Part shown: piece by piece, positions 626 to 63,173 of the stretch
Layout: each line of letters starts with the position of its first letter
Numbering within the stretch: position 1 is the first letter of the stretch
Origin: Octopus vulgaris
Taxonomy: Eukaryota
Length of the DNA: 64,000 bases
Direction of reading: 5' to 3'
Assembly (NCBI GenBank): GCA_951406725.2
Contig: OX597833.1
Location: forward strand, 44,516,001 to 44,580,000
The notes under the pieces: generated by a model
What the model was told of the DNA's origin: nothing
The model's database searches: none
The model's input: the letters and a program-made list of their open reading frames with translations, nothing else
Position numbers and translations under genes: made by a program

Positions 626-930
626 TCATTCCAAACTGATAGTTCGCGCAATTTCTGTTCCAAATGCTTTGCATGTGAAAGTTGTGTAATCTAAGTCTTT
701 CTCTGTTACAAGGTAGTAATACTCCGCATCTACCACAACAAAGCATTTGTCACTATGTGGAACTATCTGTATTTTATAGAGCTTACGCCATAGATTGGGA
801 GTCCCTATGGTCCATTTAAAAGTGACAGTTGGTGGAGAAGGTAACCCAACAATTGCTGTACATCTGATGATCCATGGTCTTACGAAGGTTTTATCACTGA
901 CCATTTCCAGAGACTGTATATGAGATTTCG
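626..930 (-). CDS. Ig C-like terminal exon, duplicated variant (C1b) of IgSF gene 1
   Basis: Acceptor ttttttccag at 931-932, phase 1. Translates (A)KSHIQSLEMVSDKTFVRPWIIRCTAIVGLPSPPTVTFKWTIG...HSDKCFVVV...TTFTCKAFGTEIARTISLE*, with B-strand Cys, C-strand Trp and F-strand Cys. Five substitutions relative to 4642-4946. Confidence 0.75.
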
Positions 931-3979: not shown

Positions 3980-4641
3980 TTGCACTCTGCCGACGATCCA
4001 CATTCAAATTCCACCATCCCCAGTCCATTGTTCGTTGCGAACGTTTAGGCTAAGTTCTGCTGGAAAGCTGTTTACATCAGTCTGGAATCCGTTGACGTGC
4101 TCGATTTAGTCCGTCACATACCTATGTAGAACCTTGATACTCACTGACTCTATGCAAGTGCAATCAATCGAACGGTTTCTACCCAGTGGGTTTCAGAGAT
4201 CAGGAGCTAGTATGAACAACGCATCCTTTGTGATTTGAGTTGAGGAAATGATCAATGATTATTTCCACTACAATTATGCCGTATGACTTTATCCGTTCGC
4301 CTTCTAACATATAACCTACTGCCTTTTCTGATCTACTACCCTCTTTTGCTACCACTTTGTTAAAACTAACAAATGAAATTGGGAACATTCAGAATGGCAT
4401 TCTTAACAATATTCCTAATTAATAATTACATAGAAATATACATGCATACTCGCATGCAAAAGACATATACGCGCATGAAAATATAGATATACGCATGTCA
4501 AAAATATGCAAAAACTAATACACATACGTATTTAAAACTAAGCTTGCTCACTGATCTGAGGCTAATAGCAACAATTTTTTTAAAAAGCGATAAAATATTA
4601 ACCAATGTGAACCAAAGATAAGTAGCTCAGCTTTTGTTACG

Positions 4642-4946
4642 TCATTCCAAACTGATAGTTCGCGCAATTTCTGTTCCAAATGCTTTGCATGTGAAAGTTG
4701 TGTAATCTAAGTCTTTCTCTGTTACAAGGTAGTAATACTCCGCATCTACCACAACAAAGCATTTGTCACTATGTGGAACTCTCTGTATTTTATAGAGCTT
4801 AAGCCATAGATCGGGAGTCCCTATGGTCCATTTAAAAGTGACAGTTGGTGGAGAAGGTAACCCAACAATTGCTGTACATCTGAAGATCCATGGTCTTACG
4901 AAGGTTTTATCACTGACCATTCCCAGAGACTGTATATGAGATTTCG
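4642..4946 (-). CDS. IgSF gene 1 exon 3, Ig C-like domain with stop (C1a)
   Basis: AG acceptor at 4947-4948, phase 1, in frame with V exon 7519-7199. Motifs RCTAIVGLP, FKW, KCF, FTC; ends in TGA. Confidence 0.88.
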
Positions 4947-5539
4947 CTGGAAAAAAATGAATCAATATATGTAATTCTTTCAACAATAAGCCTCACAATA
5001 AAATATTGTATATTTACACTGATGAAAATTACAATCTTCGTACAACACTGAAATATTTAACAACACTTCCGATGGACCCTTTTCGTTACTGGTTCCAAGT
5101 GTTCAAATATCTAACTTTATAACAAAAGCAATGCTTAAGCAACGTCGAGCCAGACTAATCTGACAATAACTATAGAGACACAGATACAATCATGCACCTA
5201 TATACATGTGTATGTATGTATGTATGTATGTATGTATGTATGTATGTATGTATGTATGTATGTATGTATGTATGTATGTATGTATGTGCATGTTTGAAAG
5301 ACGCTCCTTTTCTTTCAATAGAGTCTTCCTTGGAAAACATCTCCAATGGACGTGAGTTGTTTCCGAGCTTTCCATCTACTTTTCTACTGTTTTCGTCACT
5401 AAGGAATATTTTTAGATGTTTGGGAGAATTAATTTTTCAAAACTCTTTACTTTCATATCTATTTTATCTCTCCTCAGCTCTTATGCTGGACACAATCATT
5501 TAGAAAATGCGAACATTTGAAACGATGTACTCTTTACAC

Positions 5540-5912
5540 TTTTACTTGTTTCAGTCAGTTGACTGCGGCCATGCTGGAGCACCGCCTTTAGTCGAGCAAA
5601 TCGACCCCGGGACTTAGTCTTTATAAGCCCAGTACTTATTCTATCGGGCTCTTTTGCCGAACCGTTAAGTGACGGGGACGTAAACACACCAGCATCGGTT
5701 GTCAAGCAATGCTAGGGGGACAAACACAGACAGACAGACAGACACACACACATATATATATATATATACATATATACGACAGGCTTCTTTCAGTTTGCGT
5801 CTACCAAATCCACTCACAAGGCATTGGTCGGCCCGGGGCTATAGCAGAAGACACTTGCCCAAGATGTCACGCAGTGGGACTGAACCCGGAACCATGTGGT
5901 TGGTTAGCAAGC
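5540..5912 (-). mobile_element. SINE family B copy (inside the duplication)
   Basis: Duplicate of 1528-1900. Confidence 0.85.
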
Positions 5913-7198
5913 TAGATGTGTGAACTTTCGTAAACAAAGTTTGTATAGAATTGGAAGCTACCTGTTGGAATGTTTCAGCTATAACGAAAAAAACACATTC
6001 AAAGCGTTCTGAGACTATAAGGACACTGCAATTTATCCAACATGCTCCAAATTTTATCGATGATGATCTCGGAAAATCAATGGGAGCCATCACTAAATAA
6101 AGTCTGCAATACACGGGAAATCCGTTTTATCCATACCAAACAGTTATTTAAGAAGGTTGAAAACCTTCACGAACATGGCAAGCTTTCGTTCTTCTCTGAT
6201 CAGAAGAACCTCAACCAGATGGTTATGTACTGATTCTTCTGATGCGTTGAGGTGCTAAGACCTGAATAGATGAAGTACGAAGTGGAAGTCCACCTTCACA
6301 CAAATCCATGTAACTCAAGAATGGATTTCAGGCAATCTTTACTATCATGCACCGCAAAACTTGTATTTCGACAAAAATTTCTTTTTCTTATCGAATTACA
6401 TTTCGCTTTCGCTAGATTAGAGTAATTTTATTAAATTACCAAATATGTCCTTAAATGTTTCTCGCACCTTATACATCAATTAGCGAAGGCATCCACTTCA
6501 TTCTCCCGAAAATAGCACAACTATGCACTGTACATATTTTCTAGAGTACTTTCAACACACTTAGAAATATTGAATTTCTAAATGTCTCAGAGAGACATGA
6601 GCGGTGGTGGGGCGATATAGTGGTTGTATACTGTCAACTCAGCGTGACAAAGGAATCACACCACTGCTATTTAGCCCTAGGAAGCATCGACGCTTCCTGT
6701 CGGCTTTGACACATTTCCTGTGTCCTTATATTTGCAAAGGGGAGGCAAGGACCCCCGCCAGCTAGGATTAGCACCTGAAGACATGCATGTTTCTGGGTCT
6801 TGCCCATCATCAGTCCAGGGTAGTAAGTCCTGCTAGCTGAGATGGCTGCAACCGCTTTTCAAATATGTAATATTTTCAGTGAAATTTATTCACTGGTTAC
6901 CAAAATTAGAAATATTGAATTTTTAAAATGTCTCAGAGAGACATGAGCGGTGGTGGGGCGATATAGTGATTGTATACTGTCAACTCAACGTGACAGTCCC
7001 GTAAAGGGAATCACACCACCTCTATTTAGCCCTAGGAAGCATCGAATATATTTCAACACACTGAAAAACAGAAATCTTAAAACAAAAATAAGGTTGAACA
7101 TGCCCAAGGCAACGCATGAAGAGCCTGCAATAAAAATACGCTTCTGAAAATCAATCAATAATGGAACTGCATTAGTAAAAGCAAGTAGTAAAACTGAC

Positions 7199-7519
7199 CT
7201 TTCATAAACTTAGCTTTCGAATTTTCTGAGGAAGTGCCACATTTGTAGTATGCTACATCTTTGCAAGTGGGATTTCGTTTCCAACAGGTAACTACACCTT
7301 CATTACAATAAGTTAAAGTACACTTGAAACCATCCTTACTGAATTTTGTTTCAAATATGCGTGTGGGCCTGTGGCATTCAAGATATACAACTATAACATC
7401 GTTTCTAAATAGTTTGAAATTAAGACGATGCCCCGCATTATACTGACATGTCATAGTTATTTGAGATGTCTCTCCAAAGCGAATACCATCATCAGGCGTC
7501 ATTTTCGTTATCGCAAAAT
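7199..7519 (-). CDS. IgSF gene 1 exon 2, Ig V-like domain
   Basis: Acceptor ttacttgtag, donor AAAG|gtcagt, 321 nt, phase 1-1. FAITKMTPDDG...ITMTCQY...KDGFKC...TCWKRNPTCKDVAYYKCGT carries the V-set D-x-x-x-Y-x-C motif. Confidence 0.9.
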
Positions 7520-7573
7520 CTACAAGTAATAAATAAATGAGAGATAGATTTTTTTTTTTAATATATCATTTTA

Positions 7574-7750
7574 GAAGAAGAAGAAGAAGAAGAAGAAGAA
7601 GAAGAAGAAGAAGAAGAAGAAGAAGAAGAAGGAGGAGGAGGAGGAGGAGGAGGAGGAGGAGAAGAAGAAGAAGAAGAAGAAGAAGAAGAAGAAGAAGAAG
7701 GAGGAGGAGGAGGAGGAGGAGGAGGAGGAGAAGAAGAAGAAGAAGAAGAA

Positions 7751-7781
<31 letters not shown>

Positions 7782-7949
7782 GAGAAGAAGAAGAAGAAGA
7801 AGAAGAAGAAGAGGAGGAAGAAGAAGAAGAAGAAGAAGAAGAAGAAGAAGAAGAAGAAGAAGAAGAAGAAGAAGAAGAAGAAGAAGAAGAAGAAGAAGAA
7901 GAAGAAGAAGAAGAAGAAGAAGAAGAAGAAGAAGAAGAAGAAGAAGAAG

Positions 7950-7979
<30 letters not shown>
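7574..7979. repeat. (GAA)n/(GGA)n trinucleotide tract, ~400 bp
   Basis: Directly visible; source of the poly-R/S/L/F ORFs. Confidence 0.98.
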
Positions 7980-7982
<3 letters not shown>

Positions 7983-8215
7983 ATAACGCCACTGAACAAG
8001 ATTAACGAAAAGCAAACGACAGACCAAGCTAAGCGAGGAAACGGCAAGAAGTAAATGAGAAGAAGAGAGTGAACACAAGTCAAACGAAGGAAAAGGGAAA
8101 AGAGTGACAGTAGAAAACAAGGAAAGGTCTGCAGAGAAAATGAGTGAGGAGTTAGAAGCAAAAAAAAACAATCAAAAAGAAAAGGAGCTGTCGAAAACAA
8201 AAGAAATAGACAGTA

Positions 8216-8628
8216 AGGCGGCGAGTTGGCAGAAATGTTAGCACGCCGGGCGAAATGCTTAGCGGTATTTCGTCTGTCGTTACGTTCTGAGTTCAAATTC
8301 CGCCGAGGTCGACTTTGCCTTTCATCCTTTCGGGGTCGATAAATTAAGTACCAGTTACGCATTGGGATCGATGTAATCGACTTAATACCTATGTCTGTCC
8401 TTGTTTGTCCCCTCTGTGTTTAGCCCCTTGTGGGTAATAAAGAAATAGGTATATCGTCTGTCGTTACGTTCTGAGTTCAAATTCCGCCGAGTTTGACTTT
8501 GCCTTTCATCCTTTCGGGGTCGATAAATTAAGTACCAGTTACGCATTGGGATCGATGTAATCGACTTAATCCCTTTGTCTGTCCTTGTTTGTCCCCTCTG
8601 TGTTTAGCCCCTTGTGGGTAAAAAGAAA
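8216..8628 (+). mobile_element. tRNA-derived SINE family A, two tandem units
   Basis: ggcggcgagttggcagaa head with A/B-box-like motifs (gagttcaaattcc); central gcctttcatcctttcggggtcgataaa. Confidence 0.85.
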
Positions 8629-8815
8629 CATATATACCTGCCTGTACCGATATTCGGAAGCATGTACAGAAGAAGAATTATGTGTGAGACAGGAATAATA
8701 GGATGAAAAACAATTACACAAAATCATAGGTAATCAAAGGATAAAGGAGGCAAGACTAAAACTGAGTCGTGGAGGTGAAAAAAATAATATGTGACTGATT
8801 TAAGTCTTGACTTAC

Positions 8816-8864
8816 AGGCGGAGGTGTAAGAAGCCATCATCAGTATTTTTATAACTAACAGCAT
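8816..8864 (-). CDS. IgSF gene 1 exon 1, signal-peptide (leader) exon
   Basis: ATG...MLLVIKILMMASYTSA plus 1 nt, then gtaagt donor (49 nt, phase 1). Hydrophobic core with a T-S-A cleavage-like end. Paralogues at 27048, 33149 and 35910. Confidence 0.85.
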
Positions 8865-9352
8865 TGTTGGTGTTATCGACAGATGGTGAAATGAGTGTCG
8901 GCTCCCAGCAACTGAAATATAACCAGTAAATCCGCATGGTTTTATTTTGTACGATGTGGAAGGAATGAACGAAGAAAATTACAAAAATGATGATAGAATG
9001 TGTATGAACGTAGGCAAACTAATATCCTTCGCACCAGTAAAAGAATGTAAAACACCTGTTGCCATTATGATACTGTGAATACATCAATAGAAAGCATTAT
9101 AATTGAATTACATAGTGTGAATTATTGCGTAATAACTCGTCTATTATAAGTAGTGATTGATTTACGAACATAGCACAAATAGAAAGTTTGAAAGTTCTGA
9201 AACTGGTTTCTTTCTTTCCCTCGTTTTTATTAAATTTTTGGCTTTTATATTAAAAATGATCATTTCTTTAAAATTATTCTACAAAATGATGTATTTACAA
9301 TATTTGTCTATGAAAAGTATTTTCGATATTGCATACATATATATGTGGGTGG

Positions 9353-9381
<29 letters not shown>

Positions 9382-9383
<2 letters not shown>

Positions 9384-9685
9384 GAGGCACATGGCCTCGT
9401 GGTTAGAGCAGCGGACCCGCGGTCGACGGATCGTGAGTTCGAACCTCAGACCGGGCGATGTGTGTGTGTTTATGCGCGAAAACACCTAAACTCCACGCGG
9501 CTCCAGCAGAAGGTAATGGCGAACTTCTGCTGACTCTTTCGCCACAACTTTCTCTCACTCTTTCCTCTTTCATCTTGCAACTCACCTGCGACGGACCGGA
9601 GTTCCGTCCAGGTGGGGAACCTATACGCCAGGGAAATCGGGAAACAGGCACTTATGAGCAAGGCGTGGCTCGAGAAGAAGCAAAC
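9382..9685 (+). mobile_element. tRNA-derived SINE (family C)
   Basis: tRNA-like head (tggcctcgtggttagagc...gagttcgaacc) followed by a non-tRNA body and simple-repeat tail. Confidence 0.7.
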
Positions 9686-9686
9686 A

Positions 9687-9725
<39 letters not shown>

Positions 9726-9959
9726 TTTGATGTAGGATAACATTTTTTCGAAAAAAAATTTTAGCAATGGCCAGCATATTAAAAAATACCTTTAAAAGTT
9801 AAATTTATAAACAACTTATAAATAAGGGTAAACGAAAAAAATTCTAATGCCAAATATTCCGAAATTAGACACATTGTCCATAACCATTATAATTTTTCAC
9901 AATACGCACGCTACTCGAAAATGGTCGACAGGAATTTCTAAAAAATTCCATTATTACCA

Positions 9960-11200
9960 ACCCTAGGAATAATATATATTGTCCACAGTTTCGTGCAGGT
10001 GGTTACACAGAACTCAAGATATTACGACGTGCTTGCAGCAAGAAAAATCATTCATAATTTTCTCGATACGCTTCGCGAAAAGCGCATGGTTCGTAGTAGG
10101 GCTCGATCACTGAAATACATGGACTGGGATTTGCACAGAATCAGCGTGTATAAAGGCCCCACAGATCTCTAACTTACTTCAAAGAGCACGTCAAATGGTT
10201 CCAGACAATGGTGAAAACATGGACAGGAGTTGCACATACACAGATAACACTTAGGTATCTGACGGACTGCGAGGAGCAGGCCAAATGTTTCCAGATAATG
10301 GTAGCGGTTTTACAGAAGTACTTGGCCTAAATATTTTCAAGAAACATCGGATTAGAGATGGTGAATTTTGAGCCTGGATAGTTGTTACAAAGTACTGTAA
10401 CTTCCGTGAGCTATTGAAATTGCGCTGAATTAAACATTCACTCCATCAAAGATGCTTTTTTCTCATTTTCTCTCGATGTTCTCACTCTTGAGTATCTTAC
10501 TGCTCAGTTATAGATATTGAAAGCCATATCGCTCTATCTAAGATGCAGGAGGAGGAACCGTATCTGCAAATGCGGGAAGTGACCCTATAATGGTGTCAGC
10601 ACTTTACCGAATGCGTGCGAGATGGTAGCATGATTACGCGTTATTGATACGTCAGGTTGGTATTGTTTAAATTAAAATTGAGATGAATTTGCGATCATCG
10701 TAACCAGTCTCACTTAAAAATGTGTTGAGCAAAAGATGGTTTGAAAGATTAAACGATGATGATTAATGTATTACCGACTAACGGTTAACCTCGTCATAAG
10801 AATTCTCTGAGTAGATTGAAATCAATGCAAGGTTTCCCGGTTCAAGAGATCTATCAACACAAAACATTTATTTCTTGTTGGTGAGAGTGATGATGCGAAG
10901 GTACGTGAAAATACTGTGCAAAGGCTTCCCAATAAACCAGTTAGGCAGATATGAACGTCAGTTAAACATATCTTACTCCAGCTATTCTTCTTCACCGAGC
11001 TTTTTTCTTGGGACAAGGGCTGATAGAAATATATGAGGTTTGATTTTTGAATGTTTCTAGCTACTCACCCTCTTTACTGGCGGGACGTTGAAGCCGGTGA
11101 AATGTCAAATTTCTTATTTAGATGGAAAATAGGGGCCATGACTGACGATGAAATAGAAAACCTTCTTGATATCTTCAGGGTGTTGAAGCGAAGATTCTAC
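9960..11200 (+). repeat. Unidentified diverged dispersed repeat, homologous to 41590-42950
   Basis: Shared blocks such as gtccaca.tttcgtg, ttttctcattttctctc.atgttctcactcttgag and gatgatgcgaaggtacgtgaaaatact. Confidence 0.75.
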
Positions 11201-11859
11201 TTGGTGATAATGCCCGAATGTAGGAATGTTTCAAAAAGTACTTTTGGGATGAGGTCACATTGCCTGATTGCTATGAATTTTACAATCATGTCTATGTGTG
11301 TGCAGCCAGCAACCGAACTTGTGATGTCTATGAGTGTGCAGCCAAAAACCAAGAAGGCTGCAGAGTGACGAAACGTCTGGTCAGATCTCATTCAGTCCAT
11401 GCTTTTCTAAATTTTAGCATTGCCTGTGTGGGATAAATTTTGGGATTCAGCGATTCAATACGTCAATCGAAAATATCAGCACGACGCTTATCTTTAACAA
11501 GCAAAAGTATGAATTCATCTTTTCCTGTCTGGAGGTTATGATAAAGGAATTCATACGATGAACAAGGTTGAAAGATTTGAGAACATAGGTTATTTTCCTC
11601 TCTAACCAAGTCTTAAAGGGCCACTTGAAAAAGAACGTAAAGGAAGATAGTGAGTTACTGTCCTTCAATATATTTTTAAAACGGTGGAAGAAATGGCGGT
11701 ATTATGGTTAGATGGTTACAGGCTAATTATGTGACTGTAGGTTGGCGGTAAAATCTGCAGAAACGCATTTTTATTTCATGTATAAGATTAATCAGGTTTT
11801 GTTACGTTTCATTCTGTAGACTCGTTATTGTGCTATTATTAAATGATATTATAATTAAT

Positions 11860-12090
11860 GGCGGCGAGCTGGTAGAATCTTTAGCACGCCGGGCGAAATG
11901 CTTAGCGGTATTTCGTCTGCCGTTAGGTTCTGAGTTCAAATTCCGCCGAGGTCGACTTTGCATTTCATCTTTTCGGGGTCGATTAAATAAGTACCAGTTA
12001 CGCACTGGGGTCGATATAATCGACTTAATCCGTGTGTCTGTTCTTGTTTGTCCCCTCTGTGTTTAGCCCCTTGTGGGTAGTAAAGAAATA
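11860..12090 (+). mobile_element. SINE family A
   Basis: Full-length match to family A. Confidence 0.85.
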
Positions 12091-12774
12091 GATATTATAA
12101 TTAATTAATTCTTATTTTCCAAAAGGCAACCTTTCTCTTCTACTATACTTGGATGTTGTTTTAGAACAGGGAACACTCCGTTATTTTCTTTGAAAGGACC
12201 TGTTGGATGGGCTCGTGATGCATAACTGTACTCGTATTTATATCATTGACAGAGGAAAACCGACTGCTGCGATCGCTGAGATTGCCCACTCACGTGAATT
12301 CGCCTTGTTTGAGGCACCTCAACGACAAGCATCCTGTAGCCACACAACAGCTGATTCTCCAGTGAAAGATATATATAGAATATCAGTGTCTATTCAGGCA
12401 CGGATGTCCCATATAGCCAGTGGGCTTATTCAGGACATATTGTGAAATCACGTGATATGGCAGGTCAGGTAGCCCCAAAAGACGATTACCGTGTATTCAG
12501 TGCTTGAATAGACACTTATATTCGTTAACGGAAGAGATTCGGCTGTTATGTTGCTGCTGGATGTCTGCCACTGTGCAATCACGTGATCTAGCAGTTCCGG
12601 TGGTCGTATCAGAGATAATCGTCTGTCAAAGATATAAACACGAGTGCCTTTATGCTACACCATCTCATATGACAGGTCCTCTCAAGGTAAAGAATGCAGT
12701 ATTCCGTGTTCAATATTTCTTTATTGGTTTTTTTTGAGCTCACCCTTATATTCGATATAAATCCATTTTATGTT

Positions 12775-13150
12775 CCACAGTTTGAGCGTCCAGTTTGACC
12801 CTACTTGAAGGGTCAGATTTCCTTTACAAACAAGGAGAGAGGTTCACAATTAAAACCAACTTCACCTGTGCCTCTGAGAACCTAATTTATGTAATAACTT
12901 GCTCGGGTTGTGGACAACCCGAGCAAGTTATTTGTTTTCGTACACATTCGCTTGCTTTCTCCCAAAAGATCTAATGTTCTTAGCTTAGAATTTGAGGGCA
13001 AACCACATTTAAACAATCTCAAGTGTAACCGGCCGAAACTGTAAGGATGACCTGCATACTTGACTGATGAGAGAAGGCTGCGAATAACCCGTCCTAGTTT
13101 TTCCTGTCCACCTTTTTGTTGTTTTTCTAGCCCGGCTTTTTATTGTCTAT
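12775..13150 (+). mobile_element. Penelope-like (Neptune-type) retroelement fragment
   Basis: Translates KQGERFTIKTNFTCASENLIYVITCSGCG, the Cys-rich start of the GIY-YIG domain typical of Neptune PLEs. Confidence 0.6.
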
Positions 13151-13201
13151 CTGCTCAGATGCTTTATTGTCGTCTGTAGCGCTCTTGTTCCATTTTTGCA
13201 T

Positions 13202-13267
<66 letters not shown>

Positions 13268-13647
13268 GGTGCGGTGGATAAACAATCATCTAAATAACCC
13301 AGAAATGAAAATAACTCATTTTAACAGATATATTTACCAAAATTACATGAAAATAACTTGAAACACTAAAGTGTAAATTTATACAATAAAATCGCCATTG
13401 ACTTCAACCACAGCCTCCAGACGACTTCGGAATTCTTCTGGACTCTTCTGGGCGGTCTCCTTGATTAATTTGATGATTGCTACGGTAAAGACAATCAACT
13501 TCTCTTATTCAAATTCAAAATGGCTGAAGAGTAGCATGGCACTTCAAATTCAGAGTACCAACGAATTTGAATCAAACTGTTTTGATTCATACATGTAACT
13601 CCCAATAAATTTGTTGAGTGCCCTTCTTTCTTTTGTACACTCACTCG

Positions 13648-13684
13648 TGTATATATATATGTATGTATATAGATAGATAGATAA

Positions 13685-13745
<61 letters not shown>

Positions 13746-13916
13746 CAGATAGATAGGTAGGTAAGTAGGTAGGTAGGTAGGAAGGTAGGTAGGTAGGTAG
13801 GTAGGTAGGTAGGTAGGTAGGTAGGTAGGTAGGTAGGTAGGTAGGTAGGTATTGATGGATGGACGGATGGATGGATGTGTGTATGTATGCATGTGTATAT
13901 ATATATATATATATAT
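13648..13916. repeat. Compound (GATA)n/(GGTA)n/(GGAT)n/(TA)n microsatellite
   Basis: Directly visible. Confidence 0.95.
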
Positions 13917-14160
13917 GAAAAGTATGTACTCTTAATATTGAAAACAACAACCAATAAATGCCGAACAAAACTCAGAGCATTGTGTAGATTAAATATTTAT
14001 TTATCACAAAAACGATTACTGTGATTTCGGAGTTCCGCAAAAAATGTCTATTAAACAGCAATCTGTAAAAATGAAGAATTGTTATCATATGGATGGACTA
14101 TCCTAAGGTTATGTACGAGGTAAATTATATGCACATTTACATACATATAGATCTATATAA

Positions 14161-14193
<33 letters not shown>

Positions 14194-15032
14194 GGTGTGT
14201 GAATATATATTTATGATATTATTATTTACAGATTAGTTAATAACTCAGATAAAATGTAGGGAAAATAAGGATAAACACAAGTTTATATTATCCAAATAAC
14301 CATTATGCGGGCTTCAACATTATGGTTGTTTGGATCCCTGCAGCTGGTGATCCAATGATATTTATATACTCAGTCACGACAGGTCACAACAGGAACACGT
14401 TATTGCATTAAGTTACTGATAACCATGTCCAGAGCTGGATAGATGGCAAGGCATTTTATAAGTATTTGGGGAATAGAAAGGAAGCCATTGCGTCCCAGTA
14501 TTACTATATTTCCCTTTCTCCCATTAACTTGTAGCAGTCGTTGCGGTACTCATTTCGGACCCACATAGAATACTTTGAATTTCGTCGTACTATTATGTAT
14601 TAAACCGTTTCTTTCTTTTTTTTTTTCACCTATTCGAGTGACACTATTATCTACTTTCTACCTTTTAGACACAGTGGTGTTAACCAACTAATTTTAAAAT
14701 TAGGTAACCCTTCGAGCAGTTTTCACTTATTGAAAGCTTTCATTCCAAACCCAGAAGTGCAGGATTCGCATACCTCTACAAAGAAATCTAGAAGGATACG
14801 TATGGGTATGTTTCCGGTATTGAAGAGGATAGTAATTTTAACATGAAGTGTAGCGTAGATGCATTCCAGAAGTTTTGAGACTTTTTTTTTAGGTGAGACA
14901 GTTACACCTGACCTAGATCATAGGAATTTTACTATAACATTACTACAGGGACACAACGTACCAACCAATCCAAAACTGAAAACACGATCTCGCGATCGCG
15001 AGTGCAGCTTTCTATGCACAAGGCCATACACC

Positions 15033-15064
<32 letters not shown>

Positions 15065-15399
15065 TTTGCTTTCCATTTCCCATGGAGAACATCGGTAGCA
15101 CAGAGAGGGAAGACTTGGAAGCTTAGACTAAGTATTCTACGAGACGCTCTTCTAATTCTGCCATCCTATTCCTCATTAAAAAAAAAATACTACAACGTGA
15201 GAGAAAAAAGGAAGGAACAATATATTTACCTGCTGTATTAAGAGTTTCTTGGTTGAATGATATCTGGTTAATTTCTAGAAATAAAAGTGAAAATGAAATC
15301 ATATGCAGGAATGGAATAGTTGAAGTTTTAATATGTCTTCGGCGTTTTCCTTTTCTTTTGTTTCAAATATCATAGTGTTAAAGCTGAAGTATTGTTTTT

Positions 15400-15630
15400 A
15401 TTTCTTTACTGCTCACAAGGGGCTACACACAAAGGGGACAAACAAGGACAGACAAACTGATTAAGTCGATTATATCGACCCCAGTACGTAACTGGTACTT
15501 GTTTAATCGACCTCGAAAGGATGAAAGGCAAAGTTGACCTCGGCGGAATTTGAACTCAGAACGTAGCGGCAGACGAAATACTGCTAAGAATTTCGCCCGG
15601 CATGTTGAGGTTTCTGCCAGCTAGCCGCCC
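15400..15630 (-). mobile_element. SINE family A
   Basis: Reverse complement of family A. Confidence 0.8.
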
Positions 15631-17039
15631 AAAGCTGAAGCATTGTTTTATAAACCGAAACCAAAGCTAAATGATATGCATATGTAGAAGTAAAGTTACA
15701 TTATTTTCAAGCCTAGCCAGGCTCAAGGGCCCAGTTTCCCGGTTTCTATGCAGGTCACTGTCAGCGTTATGGTCTTCTAATATTTCAGCTTTATCTTTTG
15801 TCATTTACTTGTTTCAACCACTGAACAGGGGACTTGCTAGAGTACCGCCGTGAAGGGTTTAGTTAAACAACCTCCCCCCCACCAGTACTTATTTTCTTGA
15901 AGTCTGTTACTTGTTTTATCGGCCACTTATGTTGAACCGTTATATTTCGAGGAAGTGAACAAACCAATACTGATTGGCAAGCGGGATACGGGACAAGCAC
16001 AACGCACTGGCATACGCGCATACATACATACATATATACATACGTATGTACATACATACATACATACATACATACATACATACATACATACATACGTACA
16101 TACATACATACTTGGAAAAGGATGCATGGCGTTCGATCATATAATGTAAATAATAAATAAATATATGCATATATACATACATATATGTACATGGGTACAG
16201 GACATCAAAAAAACGTTGAACACAATGAGAAACGAAAACATAAAAACAAAAGCATAGAAACGAACTTTTTTTCAAACAACGAAAAAAACAGAGAAATGAG
16301 ACATACAACATAAAGAATATTCCCCCTTCTTCAGTTGTCCCTGTTTTATCTACTCCGCGTTTCAAAGGTAAAGACAAGACGCGACTTCGATGAAACAGTC
16401 CTTTCCGCAAAGCAAATTAAATAAAATTTGGGATTTTTTGTGGAGGGTGAAAGTGGTAACAAGAACAGGACAATGAGAACAAAACAGTAAAAACAAACGA
16501 TGAGGGCTGTTAAGCCAAAACGATGGAAAAATTATTCTGAACGTTTAAGGAGACGAGTTTATGAAGAGATAGGATAAGCCTGTTTAGTAGTCGGAAAGAT
16601 GGATTCCCTCTCATTACGTGTCAGCGACGAGAGAGTCGAGGAGCAGGAGTGAGAGAGAGGGAACGGTAAAGGGGAGAGGAGAATAATAGGGAAGGGTGGG
16701 GGAGAAAACCATAAAGGATGAAGAACAAGAGAGGAAGAAAGATAGACAGAGAAGAGATAGTAAAGAAGAGAGCGCATCGTAATTATTAAGATAAAACTTA
16801 CTTGGAAACGGGCTTATCCTGTTGTAGGTATGTACATATATGTATGTATGTATGCATATATTTATATATTATTTATATTATGTGATCGAACGCCACGCAT
16901 CCTTTTCCAAGTAAGTTTTATCTTTATCGCGTTGTGCTAATTTCGGGCATTCGCTAACGATCTGTCATACTGTATCACTTCTCTCACCACATATTCTGCA
17001 TTTGTCGCTATAGGTAGTTTTGTCTATTCTGCACTTCAT

Positions 17040-17455
17040 AGCGTTGGTCCTTATCGCTTGTTCCTGAGCTGCGCATGAGTGCTTCTGCCTCTATCTTCAG
17101 GTCACTCTTCTTCATCTATAGCCACCGGTCTTCTGTATCTGTTTTGGCGTTCACATCTTTTGCAAACTGACCGTACAACTTCTTTTCCTTCTATGCTTTT
17201 TCTTTTCTTTTTCTTTTTTGTTCATTTCTTGTCTAATGTTTTCTTTCGTTACACAAATTCCAGTTTTGATGACGCCGGCCTTCGCGTTTCAACAGTGGCT
17301 TCACGGCATTTTTTATATACCACCCTAAGCTGTTTTCCTCTGCTTCGATACAGTCCTGACAACTAATCAAACTTCTCCCACCCTTTTTTCTGGACAAGTA
17401 CAGCCTATCGGTGTCACTCTTAGGGTGGAAGGCTCCGTGTACTGTCAACATTTTT
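17040..17455 (-). mobile_element. Non-LTR retrotransposon (R4/Dong/NeSL-like) ORF fragment
   Basis: HGAFHPKSDTDRLYLSRKKGGRSL matches the post-RT HPKSxxDRLYLxRxxGGRGL motif. Confidence 0.75.
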
Positions 17456-17918
17456 CAATGTACACACACACACGCACGTGTATGTGTACATTGTAGCGAC
17501 GATCAACATTCAAAGTCCGCCATCTTCAATCCATCGTTCGTTGAAAAGGTTTAGGGTAAATTCCGCCTTGAATCATTTGACGAGCTCGGTGCAGTCCGTC
17601 ACATACTTAAATGGAGCCTTGATACCCATTGAGTCATACAATCGCTGTCAGTCGAGCAGTTTTTACCCAGTGGGTTTCAGAGAACAGGCCCTTGTATGAA
17701 CAACACATCGTTTGTGATTTGCGTTGAGGAAATGATCAATGATTATTTTTACCGCAATTATGCCGTATGACTTTTCCTTGCGCCTTTCTAATCTATGAAA
17801 TGCCTCTTTCTTCTGATCTACTGCTCCCTATTGTTACGATTAACTAACGAATGAAATGAGGAACATTCAGAATGGCACTCTTAATAATATTACTAATACC
17901 ATAGAAATATACATGCAA

Positions 17919-18133
17919 AGGCGGCGAGCTGGCAGAATCGTTAGCACGCCGGGCGAAATGCTTTAGCGGTATTTCGTCTGCCACTACGTTCTGGGTGAGG
18001 TCGACTTTGCCTTTCATCCTTTCGGGGTCGATTAAATAAGTAGCAGTTACGCACTGGGATCGATATAATCCCTTTGTCTGTCCTTGTTTGCCCACTCTAT
18101 GTGTAGCTCCTGGTGGGCAGTAAAGAAATAAGA
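17919..18133 (+). mobile_element. SINE family A inserted 3' of gene 2
   Basis: Family A match; flanked by a repeated agaaatatacatgca segment; absent from the paralogous gene 1 region. Confidence 0.8.
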
Positions 18134-18329
18134 AATATACATGCATACCCGCAAGCAAAAGACACATATACGTGTAAAAGTATACAAATACACATGTCAC
18201 AAACAAATGCAAAAACGAATGCATATATATATTTAAAACTAAGCGTGCTCACTGATCTGAGGCTAAATAGCAACAATTAAAAACATTAACCAGGTTGAAA
18301 CAAAGATAATCAGCTCACCTTTTCTCACG

Positions 18330-18628
18330 TCATTCCATATAAATTATTCGCGAAATTTTATCTCCAAATATTTCGCATGTATAATTTGTTATGCCTAAAT
18401 CTTCCGCTCTTACAAAATAATCCGCGCTTACCTCAACAAAGCATTTGTTACTAGATGGAACTTTCACTGTTTCTTGGTCAAAAGACATGCCGTTAGACCT
18501 CTCTATATCCCATACAAAACTGGCATCACCTTGAGAGGGTAACCCAACAATTGCTGAACATCTGATGATCCATGGATCTAGGTTTATATTATTATGGAAC
18601 AATTTCAGACTCTTTATACGAGATCTCA
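18330..18628 (-). CDS. IgSF gene 2 exon 3, Ig C-like domain with stop
   Basis: Acceptor ctctttctag, phase 1. (V)RSRIKSL...PWIIRCSAIVGLPSQGDASFVW...SNKCFVEV...NYTCEIFGDKISRIIYME*; paralogue of C1a. Confidence 0.88.
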
Positions 18629-18679
18629 CTAGAAAGAGAGTGAATTAAAATATGTAAATCTTTAAACAATAAAATATTG

Positions 18680-19026
18680 GATTTCGTTTTTGGAATTCAT
18701 TTGCAAGATTCTTTATGTGAGTTCGTGTGTTGAAGCATATTCTGTTGTGTCTGGGGAGAGTCATTTTCTTTTTGTGCCTTATAATTTAACACACTCACCG
18801 TTAAAATTTCCACTTATTTCTTATTCTTATTTTCCTAAAATTTTCGTTGCGTCTTGCAATCTTTCCAATAGCCTTGACTCTTGACTATTGAAAAGGTTGC
18901 AAGACACAACGAAAATTTTAGGAAAATAAAAATAAGAAATAAGTGGAAATTTTACCGGTGAGTGTTTTAGATTATAAGGCACAAAAAGAAAATGACTCTC
19001 CCCAGAAACAACAGAAAATATTGGAT
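18680..19026. mobile_element. Palindromic (fold-back) insertion with ~135 bp arms in the gene 2 V-C intron
   Basis: 18738-18872 is the near reverse complement of 18883-19017. Flanked by direct repeat aaaatattgga; absent from the gene 1 intron. Confidence 0.8.
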
Positions 19027-19179
19027 GTTTTCACTGATAAAAATTACAATCTTCATACAACACTGAAATATTTAACAATGCTTTCGATGGACCCTGTCAG
19101 ATGATGCTTGAAGAATGCCAATCAGACAATAACTATACAGACACAGATACAATCATACACGTATATACATATGTATGCA

Positions 19180-20680
19180 TGTTTTATAACGTGGATCTGT
19201 ATATGTCACCTTAGTGTCGTGCACTAATACAATGTATCACGGAACGGGTTAGACACAAACTGTCTCCAGTTGATGTATTCGCAAATACTCTACCAGCAAC
19301 TGTAACCAATATAACAACATCTCAACAATTTTCCTGCGACACCACGAACTCACAAACGACACCTTTCGGCTTACTGAGATTTTTCTTGTGCTACTTATAC
19401 GAGTTCAGCTAGTCCATTCTCACAGCTGTTATGAAACTCGCCGTAACATCTCCCCTTTTGAGATTTGACTTCTGTAGGAAATGCAACTTGTTTATTTAAT
19501 TTTATTCTTTTTTTTTTTTTTCATCATCACCTTTCTCTTTTTTGAGATTTTAATTTCCTCTGAAGTTTTAATGCTTCTTTGGCTGGGGGACTATTTCTAG
19601 TTGTTCTGTTTGTTTATTTTTTCTACTGCTGATCCGCTTAGATTCAACCTCTTTTGGCGTTGAAACATCGGTATTTCATCGGTATTTCTTCTCTTTCTTC
19701 AGTATGTCTAGACTTCAACTGGTTCAAATGCCGTTTCTGCTATCCTATTTGACCTTTTATTATGTACATCATAATTATTCTTTTCGTCACTATACCGTCC
19801 TCCCAACATTGTCTTCCGTTTTCATATATTTTTAAATGAATTTTATCTCCCACATTAAAATAATTTGTTTTATTTCTTGGGTATTCCCTATAAGTTTTTT
19901 TGTAGGTAACTATTTATCAATAATTGATTTCATCTTCCGGGCAAACATTAGCTCTGCAGGTGACTTGCCTGTACAGGTGTTCGGGTTAAGTGTTACCCTG
20001 TAAACTCTTAAGAATTGAGTCAGTGTTGCATCATTGCCTAATTCCTTTCCTGCTTTTTTTAGTACCCGTTTAAATATATCTTCGAACCTTTCTGCTTGCC
20101 CATTCGATCTCTCACAGAAATTTCAAATTCGTACCCCGAAAACTGCGTTCCGTTATCCGATAATATTGTGTTCGGGACACCGTATCGCGCAAAAAGTTCG
20201 TGAAGAAATCTCATTGTTACCTTCAATGTTGGTTGACTGCATTTACATATCTCAGACTACCTGGTGTAGCTCTCTACTATGATCAGATAATACGCGCCGT
20301 TTACCAGTCCAGCAAAATTTATTTGTAGCCTGGACCACGGACTGCCTGTCTGAGGCCACGATTGGAATTTCGCCGGTGGTGACTTTGCTGCGAGAGCACA
20401 ACCTCTGCAAGATTTCACCATTTGTTCAATATCATGGTCCATAGCAGACCAATACACGTGACTCCTCATTACTGATTTCATTCTTGAAAAACCTGGGTGT
20501 CCCATATGAAATTAACTTAATACAGGCTTTGGTAGTGTGGCTGGCACTACAACTCTTTGTGCATACATCAACACATCACAAAGAGAAAAATGGTTCACAT
20601 TTATTTTCTTTTACCTTCAACGTTTCTTTCCTCTTTGCAATAAATTTGTCATTCTCCGATTTTAGTTTTATATCTTAAAC
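19180..20680 (-). mobile_element. Ty3/Gypsy-like LTR retrotransposon 3' fragment (integrase, PPT, LTR 19448-19180)
   Basis: GHPGFSRMKSVMRSHVYW...CRGC zinc-binding region, PWSRLQINFAG, SNGQAER and TGKSPAELMFARK. Purine tract aaaggggaga directly before TGTT...AACA LTR. Confidence 0.85.
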
Positions 20681-21589
20681 AGTTACTTACAGCACCCGAA
20701 TGAAATTCAGGTGTCGGAGTGGAAATTTAGTGCACGAGGACATGCGATACAAGTAGCATCAGATGTCCAAGTAGAAGAAAGCTAATTAACATCTGCAAAT
20801 ACATAGGAAAACCGTTTGATCTATATCAAACAGTTATTTAAGGAGCTTAAAAACCCTCACGACCATGGCTAGCTTTCGTCCTTCTCAGATAGTTATGAGC
20901 AGATGTTTTGATGCGTTGAGGTGCTGGAAACAGCTAATTAAGCCCTGTATAGATGAGTTACGAAGTGGACGGTCATATGTGTTTCGACATAACCTTTGCA
21001 TCGTCACAAAAACCCATGTAGTCCAAGAATGGATGATAAGCAATCCTTACAATCATGCAACACAAATCTTGTGGCCTTCAATCTCCTCAGATGGACTACT
21101 AGGTTTGAAACATTGCTGAAAGAGAAACTCATAAACATCCTCATAATACCACAGCTTCACCGAAGGCCGGTATTGTCCAAGTGACGACCGAAATTGATAA
21201 AGTCCATTTAATGCAGGCATGTCAACAATTCCGGTTTCGCATCGAAGAATCAAAGGTGAAAACGGATTTACAGAATAATAGTTTTATAAGAAAGCTTATT
21301 GAGAACTCATGCACAAATTTTTATCGAACTACATTTCGTTTTCGCTAGATTAGAGTAATTTTATTAAATTACCAAATATTTCTTAAATGTTTCTCGCACC
21401 TTATACATCAATTAGCGAAAATAGCACAACTACACACTGTACATATTTTCTAGATTACTTTAAACACAATGGAAAACAGAAATCTAAAAACAAAAGTAAA
21501 GTTGCACAGGAAAAACATGCAATAAAAATAACACTTCTGAAAATCAATAATAATGGAACTGCATTAGTGAAAAAAGTAGTAAAACTAAC

Positions 21590-21898
21590 CTTTCATAAAC
21601 CTAGGTTGCGAAGCTGCTTTCGTAGTGCCACATTTGTAGTGTGCTACATCTCTGCAAGTGGGATTTCGTTTCCAGCAGGTAACCTCACCTTTATTGCAAT
21701 AAGCTAAAGTACAGTCGAAACCATCCTTATAGATAATTCTTTTAAATCTTTTTGTGGACTTGTAGTATTCCATATATACAACTAAAACTTCGTTTCTCAA
21801 TAGTTTGAAATTAAGAAGGTTCTTCATCTTATACCGACATGTTACAGTCATTTTAGATGTCATACCATTAGCGGGCGTCATTTTTCTTATAGCAAAGT
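21590..21898 (-). CDS. IgSF gene 2 exon 2, Ig V-like domain
   Basis: Acceptor tacttacag, donor AAAG|gttagt, 309 nt, phase 1-1. FAIRKMTPANG...VTCRY...KDGFDC...TCWKRNPTCRDVAHYKCGT. Confidence 0.9.
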
Positions 21899-21949: not shown

Positions 21950-22069
21950 AGAAGAAGAAGAAGAAGAAGAAGAAGAAGAAGAAGAAGAAGAAGAAGAAGA
22001 AGAAGAAGAAGAAGAAGAAGAAGAAGAAGAAGAAGAAGAAGAAGAAGAAGAAGAAGAAGAAGAAGAAGA
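21950..22069. repeat. (GAA)n tract, ~120 bp
   Basis: Directly visible; same position relative to the V acceptor as in gene 1. Confidence 0.97.
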
Positions 22070-22248
22070 ATATATATTAGAAGAAATGAGGTACTCAGAA
22101 ATTCGGATGGAAAAAAATTGCCGACAGTCCATGAGAGGTTACATTTCTGAAGTGACATACAGGTTGCGGTGAATAAATTGTCTTCTAAATTACGTAGAAT
22201 TGAAAATAACGGTGACATCTCCATTTTAACAGATATATTTACCAAAAT

Positions 22249-26999: not shown

Positions 27000-27048
27000 A
27001 GGCCGTGGTGTAAGAAGTCATCATCAGTATTTTTATAACTAACAGCAT
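27000..27048 (-). CDS. IgSF gene 2 exon 1, leader exon
   Basis: MLLVIKILMMTSYTTA plus 1 nt, then gtaagt; 49 nt. L+V+C = 657 nt open (218 aa). Confidence 0.85.
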
Positions 27049-34632: not shown

Positions 34633-35909
34633 ATACTAAGTTTATATTGGTTTAATAAGAATAGATCTAATAGCACAATATGACATTTTTACCAATTATA
34701 TCTACTTTAGCTTTATTATACACTCCAGATGAATATGTTATCTTACAACTTCACTATACACAACCTTACTCCCCTTCTAAGAGCTCTACCAATTACATAC
34801 TATGTTTTGATACATAAATTTTTATCAGTTAACGGTTTGCAGCCATTTATTCAACATGAGGAAATTGAATACCTACTTTGTATACCTTTATCTACCACTG
34901 AAGTGATTCGACTTTCAAAATTTTTTTAATTTAATTAATTAATTTTCTGAGAGCCTGAATTGAAACAGCTGTAAGGGATGTTTGTCAACTTTTTTCTTAA
35001 TTACGTCTGTATTCTCTCAGCTTATTATGTATGTGTGTGGGGGGGCGTGTGTGTGTGTGTGTCACTACGCACATATGTAGTTATGTACACACCTCATTGC
35101 ATATCTGGCGCTTATTTCATCTTGAGCGTCGTGAATGATTTACGTATCCTGACAGTACATTTGTTGACATCCTGTGGCGGTAACCTAATTGGACGTGGTT
35201 TTGCTAGTTTTGTAAGACCTAGCTTCTCAAGTACGGAAGCTATTAGTCACGTAGCTAAGTGATCTGATAATTATTCAGCGAAATACTAAATTTTAGTCTT
35301 AATGGAGTATTTGCCGATTTCTCATCAGAAATTAACTAATTTCGGCTATTATGAATTGGTGGCGAAGTCTTGATTTTTTTTTTGTAACTCTCTCTGACTG
35401 TGTATTTCCTTCTTATCTTCTATCAAATTCCTTTTCTTTCTCAAAGGTTGAGAAAACACTTCTTTTTCTTTCTTACTCTTGTCGATTTCTCGAAGCACAC
35501 AGAGAGCGAGAATAAAAAAAGTGAATGAAAGAAGAAAGGCGAAAGAAAGAGAGAGATGGAACAATGTCACTACTTCCGGTATATTCTACCAATCAACTTT
35601 CTTCAAGCACATACAGAATTGGGAACAGATAGAATCAAATGGAAAGGGAGAGAAGGAGAGAGAAAGAAGTAGAAAGAAATAGAGAGATGGACAATCTCAG
35701 ATTCATTCACACTCCAAATTTCCTTCCCTTTGTTATTCGCGTTTATTTAAATTCCGTCTTTCTCATGTTTTCTTATTCTTTTGCAGTTTTAACCACAATT
35801 TTTACCTGACCCAAACATGTATTTTGCTTATATTTTAGTTGCTGGGAGCAGACGACAATTTCCCTGTCTACCTTATACTTCCCTGTTACCTTCTAAGATA
35901 TTGTTAGCT

Positions 35910-35946
35910 ATGATTATACTGACGATGACTTCGTACACGTCTGCCT
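35910..35946 (+). CDS. IgSF gene 3 exon 1, leader (alternative in-frame ATG at 35817)
   Basis: (ILLA)MIILTMTSYTSA plus 1 nt, then gtaagt, homologous to the gene 1/2 leaders. The family ATG position is ATA here. Confidence 0.7.
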
Positions 35947-39696: not shown

Positions 39697-40017
39697 ATGT
39701 TTTGATTTCGAAAACGTTTCCACGTTATAATGTTGTAGTCGGAGTGACACCTAATATATCAATAACATGCAGGATTGTGATGAATAAATTTATTTACTTA
39801 AAAGTCCAACGAAACGGAGTCACAGTTGCGCATATAGAATATTCCTCAAGCGACGACAAATACAAAAAACGAGATGCTAAAAAAGGCTTCGACTGTAATT
39901 TACCTACTGGTAAGGAATTTTTTGTTACCTGTTGGAAATTAAAACCCACTTGCGAAGATGTAGGAACCTATACATGTAAAACTTCGAGGGGAATTTCGAA
40001 AAAGAAGACGCTAAGAG
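39697..40017 (+). CDS. IgSF gene 3 exon 2, Ig V-like domain
   Basis: Acceptor tatttatag, donor AGAG|gttggt, 321 nt, phase 1-1. ISITCR...KKGFDC...VTCWKLKPTCEDVGTYTCKT. Confidence 0.9.
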
Positions 40018-40349: not shown

Positions 40350-40660
40350 CAAATTCTGAGCTACTGAAACTGTATATTGTCAAGACATATTATGAAAAAG
40401 ACAGGCGAGTAATACACTTGAAATGCATAGCAAAAGTCGGCGGACCATTTAAATCACATTCCATCTTTGTGTGGATTGTAACAAGAAATGGTAAAACACA
40501 TAATACCTTCATAGACGAGAAAATTCCACGTTCTTCGACTTGTTATTCTGAGGTATCATCTGAATATACGTTCTTTGCACCATTGAAAGACGTATATATC
40601 ACATATATCACCTGTAAAACAACATTTGGTACACTTACCAAACAAATCCAAGATGAGTAA
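40350..40660 (+). CDS. IgSF gene 3 exon 3, Ig C-like domain with stop
   Basis: Acceptor ttttcttttcag, phase 1. (A)NSELLKL...HLKCIAKVGGP...FVW...SSTCYSEV...YITCKTTFGTLTKQIQDE*. Confidence 0.88.
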
Positions 40661-59109: not shown

Positions 59110-59804
59110 GCAGGAAGGCAGACTGACAGACAGATAGACAAACGGACAGATAGATATTTTCACACATACATACATATAATACATACATCCAAACATACAT
59201 ACATACATACGTACATACATACATACATGCATACATACATACATACATACATACATACATACATACATACATACATACATACATACATACATACATACAT
59301 ACATACATACATGCATACATTATGAGAGAGAATGACAGAGAGAGAAAGAGAACTATTTCACACTTTGCATTACATGCCACTCATTCACTCACACTTCAAA
59401 TTTCACTTTCAACTTCTCACCTTCACACATTTAGCGCTCTATTTTTACTGTTACCTATCATTTGATAACAATTTTTACCTGGATCAGTTATGCTTTGTGG
59501 TGAAACTACAATTCCTGAGAGGCGTAGATTATTTCCTCCTTTGTCTTCTGGCCTTTTAACTGCGATGAAGCTCTTATTTATAATAACGCTGCGGCCTTCT
59601 GACAATTCAGTTTCTGGTGATTGTAAGTTAAAAAATAGGATCTTCAGAATTCCTTTTTCATTTTCCTCTCGTATCACCATTATTCTCTTTATATAATTCT
59701 AACCCCCCTCACACTCTGCCTCTCTATTTATATATGTACACACATACACACACACACACACACACGCACACATACACACATATATATATGCACACAGATA
59801 CACA

Positions 59805-62852: not shown

Positions 62853-63173
62853 ATATGAGCTTATTTATATCACCGACAGCTGGTCTTGACATAAGAGGGA
62901 TAACTAAAGTCGCTCTAATATGTAGCTATAATGTGCCAAAGCTCACTACTTTCGAACTCTTTGCAAAGACCAAATCTGTGGTAAAGATGTCATTCCAGAC
63001 AAACAAAAAGACTGCGAATAAACTCATACACAAACGAGATGGTTTTGACTGTACTTTAATTGTTGCTTCTAAAGGGGATATTATCTGCTGGAAAATTAAC
63101 AGCACATGCAAAGATGAAGGACCTTACAGATGTGCAACAGATAAAAAATCTTCAAAACCGAAAATATTAACAG
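62853..63173 (+). CDS. IgSF gene 4, Ig V-like exon (leader not identified; C exon expected beyond the window)
   Basis: Acceptor ttttcattacag, donor ACAG|gtcagt, 321 nt, phase 1-1. ALICSY...RDGFDC...ICWKINSTCKDEGPYRCAT. Confidence 0.88.

Follow-up and report, generated by a model that had tools for sequence, protein, structure and literature searches.

The DNA analysed here is a 64-kb stretch of the Octopus vulgaris genome (64,000 nucleotides, referred to as the window), which contains four genes of one immunoglobulin (Ig) family: genes 1 and 2 on the minus strand and genes 3 and 4 on the plus strand. In genes 1 and 2 a signal-peptide exon is followed by a V exon, a C exon and the stop codon, all in phase 1 and with canonical splice sites. 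These two genes are intact tandem paralogues and are predicted to encode secreted proteins of two Ig domains, V and C. The amino-acid differences between them are concentrated in the loops at the tip of the V domain, and this excess very probably reflects positive selection.

The spliced open reading frames (ORFs) of 224 residues (gene 1) and 218 residues (gene 2) are uninterrupted, and the mature proteins have isoelectric points of 9.0 and 9.4, respectively. A TGA codon closes the C exon in both genes. The model of the O. bimaculoides orthologue of gene 1, P0003, stops at the same place; this means that the anchorless form is common to the two species. The V exon of gene 1 is 100% identical to the O. 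vulgaris predicted protein P0002, and gene 4 corresponds to the predicted protein P0001. The public O. vulgaris gene models for the window genes are fused or truncated.

The V exons of genes 1 and 2 are predicted to encode V-set Ig domains. The AlphaFold2 (AF2) model of the gene 1 domain is confident (predicted local distance difference test score, pLDDT, 94.3) and superposes on VHH and T-cell receptor (TCR) V-set domains with a Z-score of 12.6 and a root-mean-square deviation (rmsd) of 1.9 Å over 97 aligned residues, at 9% identity. Its strands form the nine-strand sandwich with C' and C'' that defines the V-set of the Ig superfamily (IgSF). The cysteines of the B and F strands and the D-x-x-x-Y-x-C motif are kept: among 32 sequences, Asp90, Tyr94 and Cys96 are invariant and Cys27 is nearly so. 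The tryptophan expected in strand C is lacking, and leucine occupies its inferred position. Three extra cysteines are invariant in the octopus V domain. The Pfam V-set score of the family V domains is under the cut-off. The two-domain V-C model of P0003 (pLDDT 93.4) superposes on B7-H6 over 181 residues with an rmsd of 4.0. Neighbours in the Atlas structures are OX-2/CD200-like proteins, butyrophilin and ICOSL; Beat and Dpr are absent among the fold matches listed.

Divergence of the V and C exons

The preliminary description of the locus reported that the V exons of genes 1 and 2 differ mainly in three segments equivalent to the complementarity-determining regions (CDRs), on a conserved framework and next to a conserved intron. 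The strings and coordinates it quoted are all correct, and the differences are gathered in the three segments, where 24 of 29 codons differ, compared with 16 of 72 elsewhere. The loops carry 31 nonsynonymous and 3 synonymous differences. It should be mentioned that the segments had been picked after the divergence was seen; the loops were therefore redefined from the AF2 structure, blind to divergence. Tests that are blind to the segments gave only modest signals (variance of window counts, p = 0.03; runs, p = 0.11). In the AF2 model the segments match the BC loop, the C'C'' hairpin with the C'' strand, and the FG loop. The segment named C'-D is variable as described, but it comprises the C'C'' hairpin and the entire C'' edge strand, not a loop alone. 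In the structure-defined loops 11 of 14 positions differ, compared with 5 of 20 in the loops of the opposite pole (p = 0.004) and 30 of 88 elsewhere (p = 0.003). One of the six strand C positions differs, most of this strand being kept. A 4-codon in-frame deletion in the AB loop of gene 2 had been overlooked.

In partitioned codon models the ratio of nonsynonymous to synonymous divergence (dN/dS, omega) was 8.0 for the 14 loop codons of the model (p = 0.0001), 5.2 with an IMGT-like loop definition (p = 0.0007) and 7.3 for the loops plus C''. Overall, the structure-defined loop sets gave omega values of 5.2-8.0, with p from 0.0007 to <0.0001 in likelihood-ratio tests. Diversifying selection had been made to depend on a ratio above 1 at the loop sites, and such a ratio was found (omega 5-8, p <= 0.0007). 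Sites that are fast in a tree built without the gene 1/2 clade gave an omega of 3.2 (p = 0.009). Outside the loop sets the V omega was 0.8-1.25 and never different from 1. In parametric bootstraps none of 17 (V) and 16 (C) replicates reached the observed value, numbers too coarse for p-values.

The level of the background was given by ten non-coding blocks, in which 297 of 1895 sites differ between genes 1 and 2. The corresponding Jukes-Cantor (JC) distance of 0.176 is equal to the V dS of 0.17, although the blocks were found by BLAST and may lean towards conserved DNA. Four-fold degenerate sites are quiet, in line with the non-coding level (2 of 27 differ in V and 1 of 18 in C). The special conservation claimed for the adjacent intron was not confirmed, since 7 of its 77 sites differ and this is not distinguishable from the pooled non-coding sites (p = 0.11); when exon and intron are compared, the intron is at the neutral level. 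The framework is not conserved either, its omega being about neutral. In other words, the intron divergence equals dS and the framework omega is close to 1, so that both represent a roughly neutral background on which the loops are accelerated.

The C exon, which the preliminary description had overlooked, is a second fast-changing region. The protein identity between genes 1 and 2 is 42% in the C exon and 60% in V, with 99 of 294 and 60 of 306 bases differing, respectively. The C exon is twice as divergent as non-coding DNA (p = 3e-12), and its omega is 2.1 (p = 0.03; for the single pair, a chi-square test of M2a against M1a gives p = 0.0005). This means that selection is not confined to V. 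Diversifying selection at the CDR-equivalent pole is upheld by the loop omega, by recurrence in independent family pairs and by an all-nonsynonymous allele (the last two described below). The contrast with a conserved framework and intron is not supported.

When the C differences were mapped on the P0003 model, they were found in AB (8/9), CC' (4/4) and C'/D (9/9), while B, BC, DE and FG were mostly kept. Going by Ig topology, the kept C loops seem to face the V domain, and the variable ones seem to lie at the far end of the rod. On the V-facing side the fifth V cysteine and the third C cysteine could form an inter-domain bond. An explanation in which conversion made the V exon younger, leaving C more divergent than V, was rejected because the flanks are equally diverged (JC 0.10-0.18 beside the C exon and 0.125 beside the V exon).

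Constraint may instead have relaxed once the gene was duplicated, so that ordinary loop tolerance, local mutagenesis or conversion tracts imitate selection. This would agree with the framework omega of about 1 and with the non-significant omega of the whole V exon. Adjacent substitutions are somewhat enriched (46 vs 33 expected in the C exon, 60 vs 46.5 expected in non-coding DNA), and gene 3 is without the family ATG, as this explanation might predict. However, it cannot yield a loop dN 4-fold above dS, nor an exon twice as divergent as its flanks. The ratio of nonsynonymous to synonymous differences in the loops speaks against imported tracts, the ORFs, splice sites and cysteines are intact, and the exon indels are in frame. 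This explanation is already weakened and is considered highly improbable.

Orthologues, alleles and the octopod family

In the trees gene 1 groups with O. bimaculoides P0003 (99/91) and gene 2 with P0007 (98/89); the presence of separate orthologues means that the duplication is older than the species split. Branch lengths, in substitutions per site, are 0.33 (V) and 0.30 (C) for gene 1, compared with 0.03-0.04 for the O. bimaculoides orthologue, and 19 derived V changes are found in gene 1 vs 3 in its orthologue. Asymmetric species-specific bursts of this kind are typical of reproductive proteins. The proteins might therefore act in reproductive recognition or sexual conflict, as secretions of the sperm, spermatophore or egg coat that diverge through sexual selection, and their secreted, lineage-restricted and tandem nature would fit. 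This seems rather unlikely, because members with glycosylphosphatidylinositol (GPI)-like signals and transmembrane members bearing an ITIM (immunoreceptor tyrosine-based inhibitory motif) have the same variable segments.

Runs X2 and X3 hold an allele or close orthologue of gene 2. The X2 contig over the gene 2 V exon shows eight substitutions, eight nonsynonymous and none synonymous, and carries 12 nt absent from the window. Where it covers the exon, X3 has the same four FG-loop changes as X2, and three of the four are the O. bimaculoides residue. The density of changes at nonsynonymous sites in the X2 V exon is 3.5%, vs 0.8% in non-coding DNA (16/2070; p = 0.002), and the X2 changes are clustered in the FG loop (p = 0.017). 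The C-exon contig of this allele has two differences in 625 bases. These comparisons cover 40 of 146 variant rows, with all 12 differences of the X2 V contig included. The flanks of run X1 are approximately 1.5-3% different from the window, and one low-depth contig of this run is identical to the window over 21609-21839, which hints weakly that alleles are shared. Compared with X2/X3, the window shows differences that climb towards the V exon: nine of the ten intron-contig differences are in 21009-21181, and nearly none are around the C exon. This gradient within 21009-21886 resembles a linked diversity peak.

A HMMER search of 1.84 billion representatives gave 40 matches, from which three generic Ig-repeat proteins were removed; two of the remaining 37 are Logan records. 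All of the species-named matches (23 of the 37) are from octopods: O. vulgaris, O. bimaculoides, O. sinensis and Argonauta hians. The 37 matches yielded 46 distinct V and 29 distinct C domains (53 and 33 before duplicate removal); the chimeric second V of P0002 was excluded from the rate tree. Judged by these sequences, the family is so far octopod-only and apparently undescribed. No description of it was found in the literature, including by gene and UniProt ids, with subscription papers thinly covered, and one small supplement of PMC9068888 contained no match to it. The members are arranged in tandem, with four genes in the 64 kb and consecutive accessions in two species. Many have a GPI-signal-like C-terminal hydrophobic stretch, while a true transmembrane helix followed by a tail is present in some.

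The pattern seen in genes 1 and 2 recurs in the family. In 12 pairs outside the gene 1/2 clade, 160 of 334 positions (48%) differ in the three segments of the preliminary description, compared with 250 of 912 (27%) elsewhere (p = 3e-11). In the same 12 pairs, 81 of 168 positions differ in the CDR-equivalent loops, compared with 68 of 286 positions in loops at the opposite pole (p = 2e-7). The former outpace the latter; this means that the variability is not general loop tolerance. The family-wide peak is at C'C'' and C''. In 9 of 15 matched family pairs V is less identical than C.

A contrast between V and the rest of the protein is seen in the transmembrane models P0049 (O. vulgaris) and P0050 (O. 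sinensis), which come from sister species and lie outside the window. Their V domains are identical at 64 of 103 positions (62%), whereas the leader (36/38), the C domain (103/105) and the stalk, transmembrane helix and tail (130/133) are almost the same. The V differences are in the same variable segments (20/28 vs 19/73 elsewhere, p = 6e-5). In the long isoform of P0050 there is a single canonical ITIM, together with a YxN motif, and both are encoded by an exon block missing from the P0049 model. Similarly, P0031 and P0033 are identical at 102 of 104 positions in C and 34 of 34 in the tail, but at 49 of 108 in V. V divergence on a constant C domain and tail may represent alleles, alternative V exons or converted paralogues. 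Model P0026 has V-C-V in tandem with near-identical C, so that a single tail may be joined to different V exons or V-C cassettes.

Related systems and possible function

A transmembrane gene with a hyper-divergent V atop near-identical C, transmembrane and tail regions would suit a self/non-self or cell-identity code like that of Hydractinia Alr1/Alr2 or neuronal Dpr/Beat, in which like binds like and soluble forms modulate. Neuronal identity codes are mostly conserved across sister species, which argues against this, and genes 1 and 2 have no anchor. Alr provides a precedent, with a polymorphic V-set domain 1, tails with ITIM or immunoreceptor tyrosine-based activation motifs (ITAM) and possible secreted isoforms (bioRxiv 2022.03.04.482883), and the Dprs and Beats share the two-Ig architecture (PMC10084454). 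Like the octopus family, Alr1/Alr2 form an invertebrate gene cluster in which the V-set IgSF domains are atypical and Pfam hardly detects them. However, Alr2 selection is located on the C/C' side face (PMC8282982), compared with the tip and C'' in the octopus genes. Alr domain 1 is without the pin cysteines and is accompanied by I-set and Fn3-like domains (bioRxiv 2022.03.04.482883). This combination marks Alr members and is not found in the octopus proteins, which keep the cysteines, lack the tryptophan and have only two domains, one of them C. A self code of this kind is considered unlikely.

A functional analogue, among the closest known systems, is the vertebrate CEACAM/PSG cluster. PSGs are secreted and CEACAM1 carries an ITIM. 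CEACAM N-domains have no B-F disulfide, and their variation lies on the GFCC'C'' face, whereas the octopus V domain keeps the B-F cysteines and three extra cysteines and varies at the tip and C''. The CEACAM7 N-domain is a structural match to the octopus V (Z 10.9); no sequence homology between the two families is shown. CEACAMs have an N-terminal IgV and IgC-like domains, GPI or transmembrane anchors, selection on the N-domain, swapping of this domain between paralogues and a decoy logic (PMC8860441); the octopus family likewise mixes anchors and has selection on V.

Gastropod FREP/VIgL and amphioxus VCBP are also secreted germline-diversified V-type Ig proteins (PMC7588048, PMC13428168). The octopus genes differ from FREP/VIgL in that they stop at the end of the C exon, without a fibrinogen or lectin domain, and from VCBP in having V-C instead of V-V and no chitin-binding domain. 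No fibrinogen, lectin or chitin-binding Pfam match was found in 33 aligned members and eight further proteins. As for homology to the IgSF1/IgSF2 profiles of FREP/VIgL, no gastropod protein is among the named matches, but the top Atlas feature matches are mollusc clusters at 0.94-0.95. B7/butyrophilin/CD200-type ectodomains and TCR/VHH share only the fold, a V-set with C'' (Z 11-12.6), at 7-18% identity, and the octopus genes have neither rearrangement nor a J segment. Each V exon contains strand G and ends in a GT donor, and the only site resembling a recombination signal sequence (RSS) in the 64 kb, with three mismatches, is at 16221, far from any V exon. The absence of an RSS or J segment and of fibrinogen or chitin-binding domains means that the family is not an antigen receptor, FREP or VCBP. 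The label "CDR-equivalent" therefore holds as a positional analogy, without the RSS and J segment of a rearranging gene.

The marks of a germline-diversified IgSF recognition cluster, tandem paralogues and positive selection on V (loop omega 5-8), are both found. By analogy, the best reading is that the family is such a cluster, made up of a signalling receptor, anchored forms and soluble binders or decoys, and working like CEACAM/PSG or Alr. The sequences give about an even chance that the family of genes 1 and 2 serves immune or foreign-ligand recognition, with fast-changing ligands such as microbes or parasites. The cluster might have been derived from a membrane V-C receptor via tandem duplication, with repeated loss of the anchor. 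The V tip would be the main putative ligand site. The conserved BC, DE and FG loops of C, together with a probable V(EF)-C(DE) disulfide, would produce a rigid rod, whose far end (AB and CC'/C' of the C domain) would have turned into a second variable patch in the gene 1/2 pair. An arms race would keep replacing residues at both patches and maintain divergent alleles. The soluble products of genes 1 and 2 might act as binders or decoys, catching what the ITIM-bearing receptor would otherwise bind.

Several observations weigh against this interpretation. The omega of the whole V exon is not significantly above 1 (dN 0.25, dS 0.17, omega 1.5, p ~0.3), the pairwise M2a vs M1a comparison for V gives p = 0.07 by chi-square, and the DNA-level tests rest on one gene pair. 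C is the less conserved domain in 6 of the 15 matched pairs, in contrast to a classical V-variable receptor. The eight nonsynonymous changes of X2 alone give p = 0.10 under neutrality, and comparing their density with just the nearest non-coding contigs gives p = 0.04-0.08. Neither the Argonauta nor the O. vulgaris model has the ITIM, the latter lacking that exon block. Finally, the selection signature would be identical for reproductive, venom or self-recognition proteins. Accessory proteins of saliva, mucus or the venom gland aimed at prey or surfaces would likewise be secreted, basic and disulfide-rich, and gene 4 has Thr-rich mucin-like stalks. These are very unlikely, as Pfam scans of the family gave no toxin-family match and the relatives are membrane-anchored and signalling.

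Octopus suckers are kept from grasping the animal's own arms by a skin cue. It is conceivable, if quite unlikely, that octopods own a polymorphic Ig recognition complex, with an ITIM receptor whose swapped or hyper-allelic V sits on a constant C-transmembrane-tail part, accompanied by GPI-linked and secreted V-C decoys. Such a complex would give a solitary mollusc a molecular self/non-self code, and it might be that skin cue.

Cephalopod specific recognition is poorly mapped, and Pfam misses this octopus family. The coleoid genome paper at chromosome scale does not use the word "immunoglobulin" in its main text, and neither "octopus" nor "cephalopod" occurs in a 2025 review of invertebrate IgSF. 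With its secreted, GPI-like and ITIM-bearing forms, and with the fast-evolving surfaces now mapped, the family is a concrete gene set for approaching octopus recognition of pathogens, mates or self. The family also adds another independent case of selection focused on the CDR-equivalent V pole without somatic rearrangement.

Coordinates and other features of the window

Table 1. Exons, loops and related elements of the four family genes (window positions)
Feature	Positions	Strand	Basis or remark
Gene 1 signal-peptide exon, coding part from ATG to phase-1 donor	8816..8864	-	tblastn with family leaders, GT donor, 224-residue spliced ORF
Gene 1 V-set Ig exon	7199..7519	-	AF2 pLDDT 94.3; Z 12.6 to VHH
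Gene 1 BC loop, CDR1-equivalent, model residues 31-35	7422..7436	-	4/5 differ from gene 2
Gene 1 C'C'' hairpin and C'' strand, residues 53-63	7338..7370	-	9/11 differ from gene 2; fastest region family-wide
Gene 1 FG loop, CDR3-equivalent, residues 98-102	7221..7235	-	4/5 differ from gene 2
Gene 1 C-type Ig exon, ends in TGA, without membrane anchor	4642..4946	-	spliced ORF; model of orthologue P0003
Second copy of gene 1 C exon	626..930	-	within 2.8-kb duplication, 98.6% identity (1-2831 = 4019-6847)
Gene 2 signal-peptide exon	27000..27048	-	tblastn with family leaders; intact 218-residue spliced ORF
Gene 2 V-set Ig exon, 12-nt in-frame deletion in window allele	21590..21898	-	alignment and run contigs
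Gene 2 FG loop	21608..21622	-	runs X2 and X3 differ by four nonsynonymous changes
Gene 2 C-type Ig exon, ends in TGA	18330..18628	-	spliced ORF
Gene 1 intron 2, 5' end, homologous to 21510-21589	7120..7198	-	7/77 different; neutral-level divergence
Gene 3 leader exon	35898..35946	+	ATA at family ATG; in-frame ATG four codons on
Gene 3 V exon	39697..40017	+	Pfam V-set match weak (E 0.008)
Gene 3 C exon with stop	40350..40660	+	spliced ORF
Gene 4 leader exon	59565..59622	+	tblastn with family leaders
Gene 4 V exon, first V of P0001 (V-C-Thr-rich units)	62853..63173	+	tblastn, model match

In gene 3 the start ATG reads ATA; both Ig exons, V and C, remain intact, and this gene has a long V branch (0.71). 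P0001, which covers gene 4 and extends past the window end, has five near-identical V-C-Thr-rich units closing with a basic aromatic motif, and is probably several recent tandem genes fused into one model. The tandem duplicate at 1-2831 contains the second gene 1 C exon without a V exon, and all five exon differences between the copies are nonsynonymous. This copy may represent an alternative last exon, a duplicate of recent origin or a haplotype that was not collapsed. At 32552-33371 the gene 2 first-exon region is repeated in inverted orientation (91.5%); a stop breaks the leader of the repeat, and no V exon of its own was found.

The 3' flank behind the C exons is common to genes 1-3 (3991-4446, 17497-17917 and 41857-42761, respectively). 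An orphan copy of this flank, without V or C exons, is at 10022-10915 (+), and the tail of P0002 contains translated pieces of it. Long (GAA)n tracts at 7573-7979 and 21950-22070 occupy a homologous spot about 50 nt upstream of both V acceptors and form a pyrimidine tract on the coding strand. Mutagenesis driven by these tracts was rejected, as neighbouring synonymous and intron sites are not raised. A PIF1 helicase ORF of Helitron-like type (Pfam E 4e-62) is located at 23582-24613 (+), within intron 1 of gene 2. A Mariner transposase fragment is at 28241-28660 (+), and a retroelement integrase zinc-finger fragment is at 20260-20511 (-).

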